Part shown: piece by piece, positions 9,995-15,840 of the stretch
Layout of the letters: every line of letters starts with the position of its first letter
Position numbering within the stretch: position 1 is the first letter of the stretch
Source: an uncultured Bacillota bacterium
GTDB taxonomy: Bacteria; Bacillota; Clostridia; Christensenellales; UBA1242
Direction: 5' to 3'
DNA length: 64,000 nt
Assembly (NCBI GenBank): GCA_946495675.1
Contig: CAMMDQ010000003.1
Coordinates: forward strand, 67,023 to 131,022
Position numbers and translations under genes: made by a program
Notes under the pieces: generated by a model
Told to the model about the DNA's origin: nothing
The model's input: the letters and a program-made list of their open reading frames with translations, nothing else
Database searches by the model: none

Positions 9995-10085
9995 TGGCGG
10001 AGAGAGGGGGAGTCGAACCCCCGATACAACAAGGTTGTATAACGGATTTCGAATCCGTCTCATTCGGCCTCTCTGACATCTCTCC
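9995..10085 (-). tRNA. tRNA-Ser (CGA)
   Basis: GGAGAGA/TCTCTCC acceptor stem, ACGGA-TTCGAAA-TCCGT anticodon arm, long variable arm, GGTTCGACTCC T-arm, G-CCA end. Confidence 0.97.
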
Positions 10086-11628: not shown

Positions 11629-14037
11629 TTAAATTATCACGTTGCAAATGCGTTTTGGCACATAAATAAATTTTTTGACTGGGCTTTTCACAAATTCTTG
11701 AACAGCATCAAGAGCCAGTGCTTTGATTTCATCTTGGCTCATTGACGAGGTTACAACAATTTTTCCGCGCAGCTTTCCGTTGACTTGAACGGGAACTTCC
11801 GTTGAGTCTGTCACGAGTGCGTTTGGGTCAAACGTTGGCCATTTTTCGTAAGAAATGGTGCCGTTATGGCCAAGATTTTGCCAAAGCTCTTCTGTAATGA
11901 AAGGGCAGATAGGATTGAGAAGTTTGATAAAGCCTTCAGCATATTGTCTAGGCAGTTTGTTTTCTTTTGCCACTGCATTGATAAAAATCATCATTTGCGA
12001 AATGGCAGTGTTGAAGTTGAGAGATTCAAAATCCTCAGTCACTTTTTTAACGGTTTGATGATAAATTTGTTTCAAGTTGTCATTTTCAAAATCGCCAATT
12101 TCCTTTTCTTGATATATTTTCCAAATACGGTCAAGGAATTTTCTTGCTCCAGCCACGCCGTTATCATCCCAAGGTTTTGAAACTTCAAGTGGGCCCATAA
12201 ACATTTCATAAAGACGCAAAGTGTCAGCACCATATTTTGCGATAACATCATTTGGATCAACTATAAATTCTGGATAGCGCTTGCCCATTTTTATTCCATT
12301 TGCGCCCAGTATCATGCCGGGATGAACAAGTTTTTGGAAAGGTTCTTTAACTGGCACAATGCCTTCATCATAGAGAAAATTGTTCCACATTCTTGAGTAT
12401 AGCAGATGACCAGTTGTGTGCTCGGGACCGCCAACATAAAGGTCAACAGGAAGCCAGTGCTCAAGCAGTTTTTTGTTTGCAAGCTCTTGGTCGTTGTGTG
12501 GGTCAATGTATCTTAAGAAATACCAACTTGAGCCAGCAGAGCCAGGCATGGTTGAAGTTTCTCTCTTGCCTTTTTTGCCTTTGTATGTGATGTTTACCCA
12601 CTTTTCATCTTTAGCGAGTGGACTGCTGCCATCTTTTGCAGGTTTATAATCTTCAAGAATAGGCAAAACAAGAGGTAAATCGTTGTCGTCAAGAGCTGTT
12701 GTTGTTCCATCATCATTATGAATGATTGGTATTGGTTCTCCCCAGTAACGTTGCCTTGCAAAAATCCACTCGTGAAGGCGATAGTTGACAGTTTTGCGAG
12801 CCTTGCCCATTTTGACAAGTTTGCCAGTGATTGCAGTTTTTGCTTCCTCAACAGTCAGGCCAGAAAATTCTTCGCTGTTGATAAGGCGATAGCCCTTGCC
12901 AAGATAATCTTGTTTTTCAAAGGCTGATTTGCTTACATCTCTGCCGTCGATGACTTGAATCATATCAATTTTGTGCTCTATTGCATACTCAAAGTCGCGT
13001 TGGTCGTGAGATGGAACGGCCATAACAGCGCCAGTGCCGTAGCTTGCAAGCACAAAATCACCAACAAATACAGGCACTTTTTTGTTGTTGACAGGGTTGA
13101 TGGCAAAAACGCCTTCAAGTTTAACCCCGCTCTTGCCTTTGTTTAGCGAAGTTCTTTCAAGGTCGCTCAGTTTTGCCGTTTCTTTGCGGTATTTTTCCAC
13201 TTCATCCCAGTTTTTGATGCGGTCTTTAAGTTGGTCAACCAATTTTGCATCAGGGGCCAGAACCATGAAAGTGATGCCATAGATTGTTTCGATGCAGGTG
13301 GTAAAGATAGAAAATTTTCCGCCGCCCACAAGTTCAAAATCAACCTCAACGCCTTCCGACTTGCCAATCCAGTTTTTTTGCATGGTTTTGGTGCTTTCAG
13401 GCCAATTTATTTTCTCAAGCCCTTCAATAAGCCTGTCGGCATATTTTGCGATGTCAACAATCCATTGTTTCATATATTTTTTCACAACAGGATAGCCGCC
13501 GCGCTCGCTTTTTCCGTCAACAATTTCGTCGTTTGCAAGCACGCAACCCAGTTCTTCGCAGAAATTGACGGGCATTTCAACAAACTTTGCAAGACCTTTT
13601 TGATAGAGCTTTTTGAAAATCCACTGCGTCCATTTATAGTAGCTAGGCTCGCAAGTAGAAATTTCTCTGTCCCAATCGTAAGAAAAGCCCAAATTTTTCA
13701 ACTGGCTTGTGAAATATTCAATATTTTTTTTGGTGAATTGATATGGATGATTGCCGGTGTTGATGGCATATTGCTCAGCTGGCAGGCCAAAAGAATCAAA
13801 CCCCATCGGATGCAAAACGTTATAGCCCTGCATTTTTTTCATTCTGCTGACAATGTCAGTTGCTGTATAACCTTCTGGGTGCCCCACATGAAGCCCTGCG
13901 CCAGAAGGGTAAGGGAACATATCAAGAGCATAGAATTTTGGTTTTGAAAAGTCCCAAATGTCAGTTTTGAAGGTTTGGTGCTCTTGCCAATATTTTTTCC
14001 ATTTTTCTTCAATTTGTTTTGTGTTGTATTCTTTCAT
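11629..14037 (-). CDS. leuS: Leucine--tRNA ligase
   Basis: MFPYPSG, HVGH, RQRYWGEPIP, GTGAVMAVPSHDQRD, KMGKR (KMSKS equivalent), VQVNGKLR. Confidence 0.98.
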   Translation of the reverse strand: MKEYNTKQIEEKWKKYWQEHQTFKTDIWDFSKPKFYALDMFPYPSGAGLHVGHPEGYTATDIVSRMKKMQGYNVLHPMGFDSFGLPAEQYAINTGNHPYQFTKKNIEYFTSQLKNLGFSYDWDREISTCEPSYYKWTQWIFKKLYQKGLAKFVEMPVNFCEELGCVLANDEIVDGKSERGGYPVVKKYMKQWIVDIAKYADRLIEGLEKINWPESTKTMQKNWIGKSEGVEVDFELVGGGKFSIFTTCIETIYGITFMVLAPDAKLVDQLKDRIKNWDEVEKYRKETAKLSDLERTSLNKGKSGVKLEGVFAINPVNNKKVPVFVGDFVLASYGTGAVMAVPSHDQRDFEYAIEHKIDMIQVIDGRDVSKSAFEKQDYLGKGYRLINSEEFSGLTVEEAKTAITGKLVKMGKARKTVNYRLHEWIFARQRYWGEPIPIIHNDDGTTTALDDNDLPLVLPILEDYKPAKDGSSPLAKDEKWVNITYKGKKGKRETSTMPGSAGSSWYFLRYIDPHNDQELANKKLLEHWLPVDLYVGGPEHTTGHLLYSRMWNNFLYDEGIVPVKEPFQKLVHPGMILGANGIKMGKRYPEFIVDPNDVIAKYGADTLRLYEMFMGPLEVSKPWDDNGVAGARKFLDRIWKIYQEKEIGDFENDNLKQIYHQTVKKVTEDFESLNFNTAISQMMIFINAVAKENKLPRQYAEGFIKLLNPICPFITEELWQNLGHNGTISYEKWPTFDPNALVTDSTEVPVQVNGKLRGKIVVTSSMSQDEIKALALDAVQEFVKSPVKKFIYVPKRICNVII

Positions 14038-14048
14038 AAATTCTCCTT

Positions 14049-14207
14049 AAAAAACAAAAATAGCAACCTTGACTGGTTGCACTTAAAAAAATTTTTTTTA
14101 GCACAACCAAAACTTGTGCCACTATTGTGGACACCAAATCAAAGTAGTGCTAAAAGAATGTTTGTTTTCATGCTTTGATAATAGCATAATTGCCTTGCTT
14201 TTGTCAA
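14049..14207 (-). promoter_or_regulatory. leuS promoter and leader-peptide transcription attenuator
   Basis: TTGACA-18-TATTAT; mutually exclusive pairings; GCAACC/GGTTGC hairpin plus U-tract before the leuS RBS. Confidence 0.75.
14139..14171 (-). CDS. Leu-rich leader peptide MKTNILLALL
   Basis: ATG AAA ACA AAC ATT CTT TTA GCA CTA CTT TGA, starting 6 nt after the -10 box. Confidence 0.7.
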   Translation of the reverse strand: MKTNILLALL

Positions 14208-14293
14208 CAATTTTTTTGCGGCAGACAAAAAAAGTTGATGCAAAAGAGGCAAACAAAAAAGGGCGCAAGCCCTTTTCTGCTTTCAGACCAAAC

Positions 14294-15778
14294 TTAGCTT
14301 GTTGCGCTCAGTTTTTTGACCACCAGTGTTGCGTCTCCGTTTTCTGGTATGGTGATGGTTGCGCCGCCAGGGGCTGTTGTGGTGGTCAAAGCAAGGTCAA
14401 TCACATCGTTGGCAGCAAGCGTTACAATAACAGAGTTTGCAACATCAACAACAAATGTTCCGCCAGTTGCTGTTTCAAGAGCAGTTTGCTCTATGGTTGA
14501 AGAAGCAATTGGAGTTGTGTTGTTTCGTGCAGTAACATTAAATGTAAGCTCTGCTGTTGAGTTGATTTGCAGGTGGTAGGTTATTTCATAGTCTCCAGCT
14601 TGCAAAACAGTGATTTGATTGGTCGCAGTTGTCGTATTGAGAACAGGCATCTGAGTGTTAAGCTCAACAGGAACGTAAACATTTTCAGTTGTTATTGTTG
14701 GCGTTTGCTGCGCATTGTTGTATAGGCCGCCATAGGCTGCCAGCCCCGCTCCACTTGCTCCAGTCGGTCCAGTCGGGCCAGTTGCACCAACTGTTCCAGT
14801 CGCTCCAGCAGGTCCAGTTGGCCCAGTAGGACCAGTAGCGCCAGTCGCTCCAGCAGGGCCGGTTGGCCCAGTTGCACCGGTTGCGCCAGCAGTTCCTGTA
14901 GTTCCAGCAGGACCAGCAGGGCCGGTAGGACCAGTAGGACCAGTAGCGCCAGCAGTTCCTGTAGTTCCGGCAGGGCCAGTAGGACCGGTAGGGCCTGTAG
15001 CACCAGTAGGGCCTGTAGGACCAGTTGCACCTGTTCCAGCAGGCCCAGTAGGACCGGTAGGACCAGTAGCTCCAGTTCCAGCAGGGCCAGTAGGGCCGGT
15101 AGGACCAGTAGCGCCAGTCAAACCAGTAGGACCTGTAGGACCAGTTGCACCCGTTCCAGCAGGACCAGTAGGACCGGTAGGACCAGTAGCGCCGGTAGGA
15201 CCTGTAGGTCCAGTCGCACCCGTTCCAGCGGGGCCAGTAGGTCCAGTAGCTCCTGTAGCACCAGTAGGGCCTGTAGGACCAGTTGCACCCGTTCCAGCGG
15301 GGCCAGTAGGGCCGGTAGGGCCTGTAGCACCAGTAGGTCCGGTAGGACCAGTTGCACCCGTTCCAGCAGGACCAGTAGGGCCGGTAGGGCCTGTAGCTCC
15401 AGCTGTTCCAGCTGTTCCAGCAGGGCCGGTAGGGCCGGTAGGGCCAGTAGGACCAGTAGGTCCAGTGGCACCTTGAGGAATATTAAAAGTCAAATCAGCG
15501 GTTGAGCCAACTCCTGACTGAACGACAGACGCAGGACTGCCTGCGGCCAGTGTGTTGGTTGCGATAACTTCAACAGTTGTGATTGTAGCACCAGTAGGAC
15601 CGGTAGGACCTGTAGGGCCAGTGGCTCCAGCAGGACCGGTAGGACCAGTCGCGCCTTGTGGACCAGCAGGACCTATTGGACCTGTAGGGCCAGTGGCACC
15701 TGAAATAATCAGTGGTGGACGGCAAGGTCTAGGATTGCAACAAGTTGGTCTGTTATTTCCAAAAAAATTAATAGCCAT
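14294..15778 (-). CDS. Collagen-like exosporium protein (BclA-like)
   Basis: Long GPT/GAT/GPA triplet region; Cys/Pro-rich N-terminus; BclA/C1q-like C-terminal domain (AGDYEITY...LVVKKL); GAGGA RBS before MAINFF. Confidence 0.9.
14750..15700 (-). repeat. Collagen G-X-Y coding tandem repeats
   Basis: Degenerate 9-bp units such as GGTCCTACT/GGCCCTACC, organised into larger repeated blocks; local GC elevation. Confidence 0.9.
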
Positions 15779-15811
15779 GTTTTCCTCACTCGGAGTATTT
15801 GTACTCCAATC

Positions 15812-15840
15812 CATAATATGAAAAAAGTTTAAAAAGTGTA
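15812..15840 (-). promoter_or_regulatory. Putative sigmaK (mother-cell) promoter
   Basis: ACAC-15 nt-CATATTAT upstream of the collagen-like gene. Confidence 0.5.

Follow-up and report, generated by a model that had tools for sequence, protein, structure and literature searches.

How does a clostridial bacterium adjust the production of leucyl-tRNA synthetase (LeuRS) when its leuS gene carries no T-box? The textbook regulator of a synthetase gene in Firmicutes is the T-box, and the question is raised by a stretch of 64,000 nucleotides (nt) from an uncultured Bacillota bacterium (Clostridia; Christensenellales; UBA1242), contig CAMMDQ010000003.1, positions 67,023 to 131,022, referred to below as the window. 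Its leuS gene, on the minus strand, is preceded by a short leader that begins with a promoter and ends with a terminator. In a first-pass annotation made from the letters, this leader was proposed to be a leaderless, Leu-rich leader-peptide attenuator that has replaced the T-box. The comparative analysis of sequences presented here indicates that the leuS leader is probably a ribosome-mediated transcription attenuator sensing the supply of charged tRNA-Leu, and that it most likely raises synthetase production when charged leucine tRNA is short.

Every element named in the first-pass annotation, i.e., the promoter TTGACA-18-TATTAT, the ATG following the -10 box with no Shine-Dalgarno sequence ahead of it, the open reading frame (ORF) encoding MKTNILLALL-stop, segments 1, 2, and 3, and the terminator GCAACC/GGTTGC, was found on the minus strand where it had been placed, and the downstream gene is indeed leuS (Table 1). 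A consensus scan gives the promoter 11 of 12 matches with TG present, the spacer between the two hexamers being 18 nt; a gap of 6 nt (14177-14172) separates the -10 box from the ATG. The codons of the leader ORF are ATG AAA ACA AAC ATT CTT TTA GCA CTA CTT TGA. Segment 1, inside the Leu codons, is complementary to segment 2, while TGGTTGTGCT, which overlaps segment 2, can form with AGTGCAACCA (segment 3) a helix of 10 base pairs (bp), two of them G-U. The terminator stem (6 bp, -9.2 kcal/mol) has its 5′ arm inside segment 3, and the distance from this stem to the leuS ATG is 26 nt. Between 13800 and 14500, four promoter-like sites were counted versus 1.0 +/- 1.1 in shuffles, and two terminator-like sites versus 0.6 +/- 0.9. 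The 143-nt leader folds at -37.5 kcal/mol versus -26.2 +/- 3.4 for shuffles (z = -3.34; 1 of 200 shuffles equals it), and the centroid of the fold consists of the 1:2 hairpin and the terminator.

These parts suggest the following mode of action. The first transcribed base would be the A of the leader start codon (14171), 7 nt past the -10 box, and the ORF would be translated from the leaderless 5′ end of the transcript. If charging is sufficient, so that the ribosome completes the ORF and departs, or if no ribosome is loaded, segment 1 (codons 6-9) would pair with segment 2 into an anti-antiterminator hairpin, P1, leaving segment 3 free to form the 3:4 terminator, at which RNA polymerase would halt before leuS. 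If Leu-tRNA-Leu is scarce, a ribosome would stall with a Leu codon in the A site and cover segment 1 together with the following bases; segment 2 would then pair with segment 3 as soon as the latter is made, no terminator would form, and leuS would be transcribed. The product of the controlled gene charges the same amino acid that is encoded at the presumed stall site.

The distribution of the leader was established by a DNA search of 154 species genomes of the genus together with a covariance model built from the copies. The leader is present in 11 of the 154 (genomes G000, G085, G024, G077, G087, G071, G078, G113, G108, G076, and G072), each time directly before leuS, and the model finds it as a single copy in the window's own genome. 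No match was obtained with the model in 150 other genomes of the order; a match in G092 (35 bits, E 0.009) was rejected because it corresponds to a terminator belonging to an unrelated gene. Scanning for a pattern of the conserved core returned 8 metagenome stretches and 14 species-genome stretches, among which the true copies were one metagenome contig (a one-base variant of G113) and seven contigs of metagenome-assembled genomes labeled "uncultured Clostridia", all from known lineages; the other 14 stretches were chance matches from unrelated taxa without promoter, ORF, or leuS. The 11 species copies and the metagenome variant make up the 12 sequences considered below, the species copies including 10 distinct sequences.

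The leader ORF is strongly constrained in position, length, and ending. All 12 sequences have TTGACA as the -35 hexamer, a spacer of 17 or 18 nt, and a -10 box of the TAnnAT type, and in all 12 the ATG follows the -10 box by exactly 6 nt and opens a 10-codon ORF, whose length is constant across leaders of 124 to 137 nt. No Shine-Dalgarno sequence precedes the ATG in any of the 11 species copies. The reading frame of the ORF (frame 0) is open in 12/12 sequences, compared with 0/12 for frame 1 and 7/12 for frame 2. The encoded peptides are MKTNILLALL, MIKSNLLALF, MKNFKILALL, MKYSKNLALL, MKNFKTLALL, MENQKNLALL, MKKNIFKALL, MKNQNLALLL, MKNKYLALLL, and MSNTKFLALL. Codons 2-6 drift freely, and the C-terminal end is kept as an (L)ALL-stop type with synonymous changes of Leu and Ala codons among the copies. 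Among the distinct species sequences, codon 9 is Leu in 10/10 (CTA, CTG, CTT) and codon 10 in 9/10 (CTT, CTA, TTG, TTA). Base 2 of both codons is always T, base 1 is C or T, and base 3 is A, G, or T, as is typical of Leu codons; Ala codon 8 varies among GCA, GCC, and GCG, and TGA and TAA both occur as stops. From two to four Leu codons stand among the last five codons in 12/12 sequences, ahead of leuS. The conservation anticipated for the upstream ORF was thereby borne out: a 10-codon ORF of the Leu-ending type lies upstream of leuS in 11/11 species copies.

Two groups of copies are especially telling with respect to the reading frame. In G108 and G076, the TTG-GCA-C block that makes up segment 1 lies one codon earlier and one Leu codon has been added behind it; since the shift is of exactly one codon, both the frame and the length of the ORF are preserved. 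In G077, two synonymous changes, to GCC and CTT, break P1 pairs, which speaks for a role of coding besides that of structure.

Codon usage may say more about what is sensed. The commonest codon 9, CTA, accounts for 4.8% of Leu codons in the window's own genome, where the tRNA-Leu anticodons are AAG, UAA, and UAG. The codons TTA, CTA, and CTT, kept in 7/12 sequences, would call on all three tRNA-Leu species; on this basis it may be speculated that the leader reads out LeuRS activity.

The alternative RNA structures proposed at the outset are supported by compensatory changes in all three helices, 1:2, 2:3, and 3:4. The antiterminator 2:3 is paired in 96.7% of the 90 alignment cells versus 28-48% for slid partner controls. 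One of its pairs has undergone a double change from G-C to A-U (in G108), and three pairs vary on one side, two of these exchanging nothing more than G-U for G-C or U-G for U-A. For P1 and the terminator, 85.4% of 357 cells are paired versus 36-45% in the slid controls, and 10 pairs show two-sided changes, a result attained by none of 500 shuffles, in an alignment fitted to the model, which favours the structure. All copies retain the pairing of segments 1 and 2, with a P1 whose 5′ strand begins in codons 5-7, and the outer helix of P1 bears compensatory changes in G113, G108, G076, and G072. The run that follows segment 2 reads AAAAAAAA, TGAAAAT, TAAATTTT, AAATAG, or ATAAATTT, in each case complementary to the sequence's own codons 5-7. 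The model realignment left segment 1 of G108 and G076 out of register, so that the outer helix scores just 70.8% paired there, and per-sequence folds were for this reason used for it.

Three terminator designs occur among the relatives, and all share bases with segment 3 (12/12 sequences), in line with the overlap claimed for the window; in G078/G072, G108, and G076, CAACC lies in the loop and the bases upstream of it serve as the 5′ arm, in a register different from that of G000. With the pieces folded alone, P1 has an energy of -21.8 to -25.8 kcal/mol (12/12 sequences), and the antiterminator one of -11.7 to -14.8 kcal/mol; the terminator, with stem and T-run in 12/12 sequences, spans -7.1 to -12.9 kcal/mol. 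In none of the 12 sequences is the antiterminator less stable than the terminator, its advantage amounting to 0.1-5.3 kcal/mol. Folding of the complete leader gives P1 together with the terminator for 8 of 10 leaders. Forcing the first 40 nt to remain unpaired brings out the antiterminator in 6 of the 10, and extending the mask to 46 nt adds a seventh; the switch expected upon masking of segment 1 is thus reproduced for these leaders.

Several points weigh against attenuation by a leucine-starved ribosome. The start of transcription, the translation of the ORF, the stalling, the termination, and the response to leucine are steps that we infer. In three of the 10 leaders (G078, G113, and G076), the terminator stays in the thermodynamic optimum even with the first 40-46 nt masked. 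Only one pair of the antiterminator has changed on both strands, and the covariation score of this helix is attained by 49 of 500 shuffles. The stop codon is about 35 nt upstream of segment 2, and a ribosome at the stop would therefore leave segment 2 unmasked, unlike in the trp leader; as a consequence, the off state needs P1 to re-form after ribosome release. There are just two to four Leu codons, which are non-consecutive, the Leu of codon 7 is replaced by Lys in G113, where segment 2 carries a change that compensates for it, and codon 10 is Phe in G024. Moreover, the Leu codons sit in the 5′ strand of P1, and their conservation is therefore confounded with that of the structure. Finally, the carriers are close kin, counted by the covariance model as 2.38 effective sequences, and the ATG, the stop, and the Leu codons may therefore owe some of their constancy to shared ancestry among the 11 closely related species.

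The alternative that best withstands the data, although an improbable one, is that the sensor is not a ribosome: P1 could be stabilized or opened by a protein (e.g., LeuRS), a tRNA, or a small molecule, the ORF being a by-product of the constraints on P1. The overlap of the Leu codons with the P1 stem would make their conservation structural, and the most conserved stretch of the leader is GTGGCACAAGTTTTGGTTGTGCT; segment 2, however, needs two partners, which alone explains why it is conserved. The UGGU of segment 2 could in principle pair with the ACCA 3′ end of a tRNA. Such a T-box-like reading, with UGGU as an acceptor site, was dropped, since UGGU lies within the antiterminator helix and not in a T-box-like bulge, and no Rfam family supports it at E <= 10. 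An operator mimicking tRNA and bound by LeuRS was dropped as well, because the loop of the inner hairpin is variable in both sequence and length, which argues against a tRNA-like or protein operator. A non-ribosomal sensor also leaves unexplained the invariant position of the ATG 6 nt from the -10 box, the constancy of 10 codons despite the shift of segment 1, the fixed base 2 and variable base 3 of codons 9 and 10, and the synonymous changes in G077 that break P1.

It is less likely still that a translated ORF reports on general translation capacity, or on ribosome-RNA polymerase coupling, and not on leucine. A pause of any ribosome in codons 6-10 would suffice to open P1, and the small number of Leu codons, together with Lys in G113 and Phe in G024, would suit such a sensor. 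On this assumption, however, it would be hard to see why the kept codons match the amino acid of the controlled enzyme, with Leu maintained in 10/10 cases at codon 9 and 9/10 at codon 10 through synonymous changes while codons 2-6 drift, and why the window's own genome has a similar leader ahead of no other gene. The latter follows from two scans of that genome, one for a promoter, an ATG, a short ORF, a terminator, and a gene in succession (4 matches) and one for leaders with terminators (12 matches): no cognate-rich leader ORF was found in either except that of leuS. The search suggested for cognate upstream ORFs before other synthetase genes thus returned none in this genome besides that of leuS.

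Assembled contigs from four chicken-gut RNA libraries cover part of the locus; as contigs they cannot reveal the start, end, or level of a transcript, and DNA carry-over is possible. One contig of library X7 (record 13, depth 3.4) extends from 13902 to 14132, i.e., from leuS across the terminator, and one of library X2 (depth 27) from 13300 to 14060, and no contig from the four libraries lies over 14155-14268. The least probable of the alternatives is an absence of regulation, with leuS, an essential gene for which no second promoter is present in the 26 nt separating the terminator stem from the start codon, expressed by read-through from a constitutive 5′ untranslated region (5′ UTR) with stabilizing hairpins, or past a small RNA ending at a leaky terminator: the modest terminator of the window and the X7 contig crossing it would agree with this, but it needs neither an antiterminator kept complementary through changes on two strands nor three terminator designs that all overlap the antiterminator, and most relatives manage with a promoter directly before leuS.

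The gene upstream of the leader (14294-15814, minus strand) ends with its own terminator at 14282-14251. Its product of 506 amino acids (aa) has collagen-like repeats and partial matches to the models of the Lcl and Scl adhesins, all under the cut-offs. In X2, the contigs of this gene have a summed depth of about 558 versus 27 for leuS, contig depth being a poor measure of expression, and they end at 14281-14312, near the terminator.

Ribosome-mediated attenuation at leuS would require translation of an ORF devoid of a Shine-Dalgarno sequence, and the window's own genome offers possible precedents. When ATGs following strong promoters are sorted by their distance from the -10 box, a peak is seen at 6 nt, with nine cases versus 0-5 at each other distance in the range 0-15. 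Long ORFs without a Shine-Dalgarno sequence account for six of the nine (Table 1), among them der, a sufC-like ATPase gene, an exonuclease-domain gene, lgt, and ruvC. The alignment to the respective profile starts from profile position 1 at residue 3 of Der, at residue 1 of RuvC, and at residue 2 of the SufC-like ATPase. Leaderless mRNAs thus seem to occur regularly in this reduced genome, and leaderless translation of the leuS leader ORF is plausible, since der and ruvC of the same genome begin at the same 6-nt spacing.

A further leader with an ATG at 6 nt from a strong promoter is located at C2:85714-85865 (plus strand; locus L089), where a 17-codon ORF, MKVEVSTSHHSIIALNW, is followed by a long hairpin terminator. 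The downstream ORF resembles by eye the translation initiation factor IF3, and the whole could be an L20-type leader in front of an infC operon. The 17-codon ORF was not taken as an amino-acid sensor.

As to the T-box, the leader does not contain one. At gathering scores, the whole window has one Rfam match only, a tRNA (tRNA-Ser with the anticodon CGA, 9995-10085, minus strand, the single tRNA of the window). At E <= 10, the region 13900-14400 yields 30 weak matches at chance level, none of them a T-box or a Leu leader; Phe_leader is among them with 17.8 bits versus a gathering score of 55. The negative outcome foreseen for a T-box scan of the leader was therefore obtained at both thresholds. 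The same model detects five T-boxes elsewhere in the window's own genome (731 kb, 82% complete), where they precede pheS, tyrS, thrS, ileS, and glyS.

Whether the attenuator took the place of a T-box is a separate matter. LeuS was searched in 40 relatives, and 11 upstream regions of leuS were read besides that of the window: among them, only the closest relative, G024, carries the leader, most of the others have a promoter and a short 5′ UTR, and one, G038, has a weak T-box. A permissive T-box scan covered 12 leuS loci, nine of them from other families of the order. Directly before leuS, T-boxes were found in two of the nine (G025 and, weakly, G038), and a third family (G031) has one near leuS in the opposite orientation (Table 1); at the gathering score, the leuS loci of 20 relatives gave no T-box. 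The proposed replacement of a T-box is therefore supported insofar as T-boxes do precede leuS in other families of the order, and not as a direct exchange: outside the clade but within the genus, the leuS genes that were read have just a promoter and a short 5′ UTR, from which it follows that the attenuator probably arose after the T-box had already been lost.

In six genus relatives, the leuS loci, fetched with flanks of about 1.5 kb, contain ribosomal protein L10 leaders (RF00557, 62-75 bits; loci L008, L012, L015, L017, L021, and L024). The L10 (rplJ) operon is a frequent neighbour of leuS in those relatives and not in the window.

The leader is a young, clade-specific element. In the nine carriers tested, LeuS is 82.7-98% identical to that of the window over the N-terminal 338-502 residues, while the next species, G015, with a LeuS 69% identical in a full-length comparison, is without the leader. 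One may tentatively go further and imagine an attenuator born de novo in one genus of reduced-genome gut Clostridia, in which leuS had already lost its T-box and was otherwise unregulated, and measuring LeuRS activity and not a single isoacceptor; this scenario is a possible one, and we rate it as doubtful.

Table 1. Features of the leuS leader in the window and of the related loci discussed in the text (window coordinates unless a contig or locus is named)
Feature	Position	Strand	Basis or remark
-35 hexamer TTGACA	14202..14207 (14207-14202)	-	consensus scan; same hexamer in 11/11 species copies
Extended -10: TG 14186-14185, TATTAT 14183-14178	14178..14186	-	consensus scan; TAnnAT in all copies
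Leader ORF MKTNILLALL-stop, 10 codons	14139..14171 (14171-14139)	-	ATG at 14171-14169
Segment 1, TTTTAGCAC	14155-14147	-	inside Leu codons (codons 6-9)
Segment 2, GTGCTAAAA	14104-14096	-	complementary to segment 1
TGGTTGTGCT, overlapping segment 2	14109-14100	-	partner of segment 3
Segment 3, AGTGCAACCA	14083-14074	-	pairs with TGGTTGTGCT
Antiterminator, GGTTGTGCT (14108-14100) with AGTGCAACC (14083-14075)	14075..14108	-	two G-U pairs; alignment covariation
Anti-antiterminator hairpin P1 (segments 1:2), inner stem-loop 14134-14116	14096..14155	-	centroid fold, per-sequence folds
Intrinsic terminator GCAACC/GGTTGC 14080-14063, then T-run TATTTTTGTTTTTT 14062-14049	14049..14080	-	consensus scan, folding
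leuS Shine-Dalgarno AGGAG	14047-14043	-	sequence reading
leuS ORF	11629..14037	-	TIGR00396 leuS_bact, 983.5 bits (cut-off 548); ATG 14037
Six long ORFs with ATG 6 nt after -10	C1:131147(+), C1:195358(+), C2:65375(+), C2:167714(-), C2:103313(-), C2:42732(-)		
T-box before leuS, G025	L028 4006-4235		119 bits
T-box before leuS, G038 (weak)	L014 1226-1417		61 bits
T-box near leuS, G031, opposite orientation	L009 1179-1357		third family

If the proposed mechanism is correct, a lineage of Clostridia that has T-boxes on five synthetase genes would control leuS by a leaderless Leu leader peptide. With 11 close species carrying the leader and a bare promoter before leuS in the nearest relatives, it would be a rare, datable case of the origin of a switch. 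At about 120 nt, the leader could also serve as a compact natural part for leucine- or LeuRS-responsive control.

Among the known systems, the T-box (RF00230) does the same job, i.e., antitermination ahead of a synthetase gene when the cognate tRNA is uncharged. The leuS leader has no specifier stem, tRNA-acceptor bulge, or match to the T-box model, and its sensor would be the ribosome. In the leader of the enterobacterial leu operon (Rfam Leu_leader), stalling at Leu codons, including the rare CTA, chooses between terminator and antiterminator; that leader controls biosynthetic genes, not a synthetase, and no Rfam leader matches here at E <= 10 beyond the chance hit of Phe_leader. The pheST attenuator of γ-proteobacteria shares with the leuS leader a synthetase gene under a cognate-rich leader peptide and a terminator, and it differs in responding to Phe, not Leu, and in belonging to Proteobacteria. 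Its leader ORF, pheM, is preceded by a Shine-Dalgarno sequence and hence not of the leaderless type.

The closest counterpart in design comes from Streptomyces. According to the report on S. lividans TK24, LeuL2 is a leaderless leader peptide of 12 aa, three of them Leu, a hairpin and a U-run lie between it and leuS, and other synthetase genes are also preceded by leaderless leaders (PMC8079986). Classical attenuators with antiterminator/terminator alternatives have been predicted before leuS of S. coelicolor and S. avermitilis and likened to pheST of γ-proteobacteria (PMC1262725). The Streptomyces leuS leader resembles that of the window, whose short ORF is plausibly leaderless too, in having Leu codons in the ORF and a hairpin with a U-run directly before leuS; the phylum and the base composition differ, and the likeness is one of design only. 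Compared to LeuL2, the leader of the window has 10 codons with the Leu codons last before the stop, and between the ORF and the antiterminator lies an anti-antiterminator hairpin of 60 nt. It is also confined to 11 species of one genus.

Leader-peptide attenuation as such is not foreign to Firmicutes. His leader-peptide attenuators have been predicted in several of them, including Eubacteriales (PMC9413887), and leaderless short poly-Cys ORFs are reported to act as Cys-responsive attenuators in mycobacteria (bioRxiv 10.1101/834739); in these cases the amino acids are others and the targets are biosynthesis or transport genes, not a synthetase. The 2005 survey has Firmicute synthetase genes using T-boxes and none known to be under classical attenuation (PMC1262725), and in our literature search, which left most subscription journals outside, no report of a leuS leader-peptide attenuator in Firmicutes was found. 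The leuS attenuator proposed here would be one that has independently arisen in a phylum where it is unexpected for a synthetase gene. It leaves the known picture of the attenuation mechanism unchanged: this mechanism and the leaderless design of a leuS leader are already known from other bacteria, and what is new is the host group, in which T-boxes are the rule.

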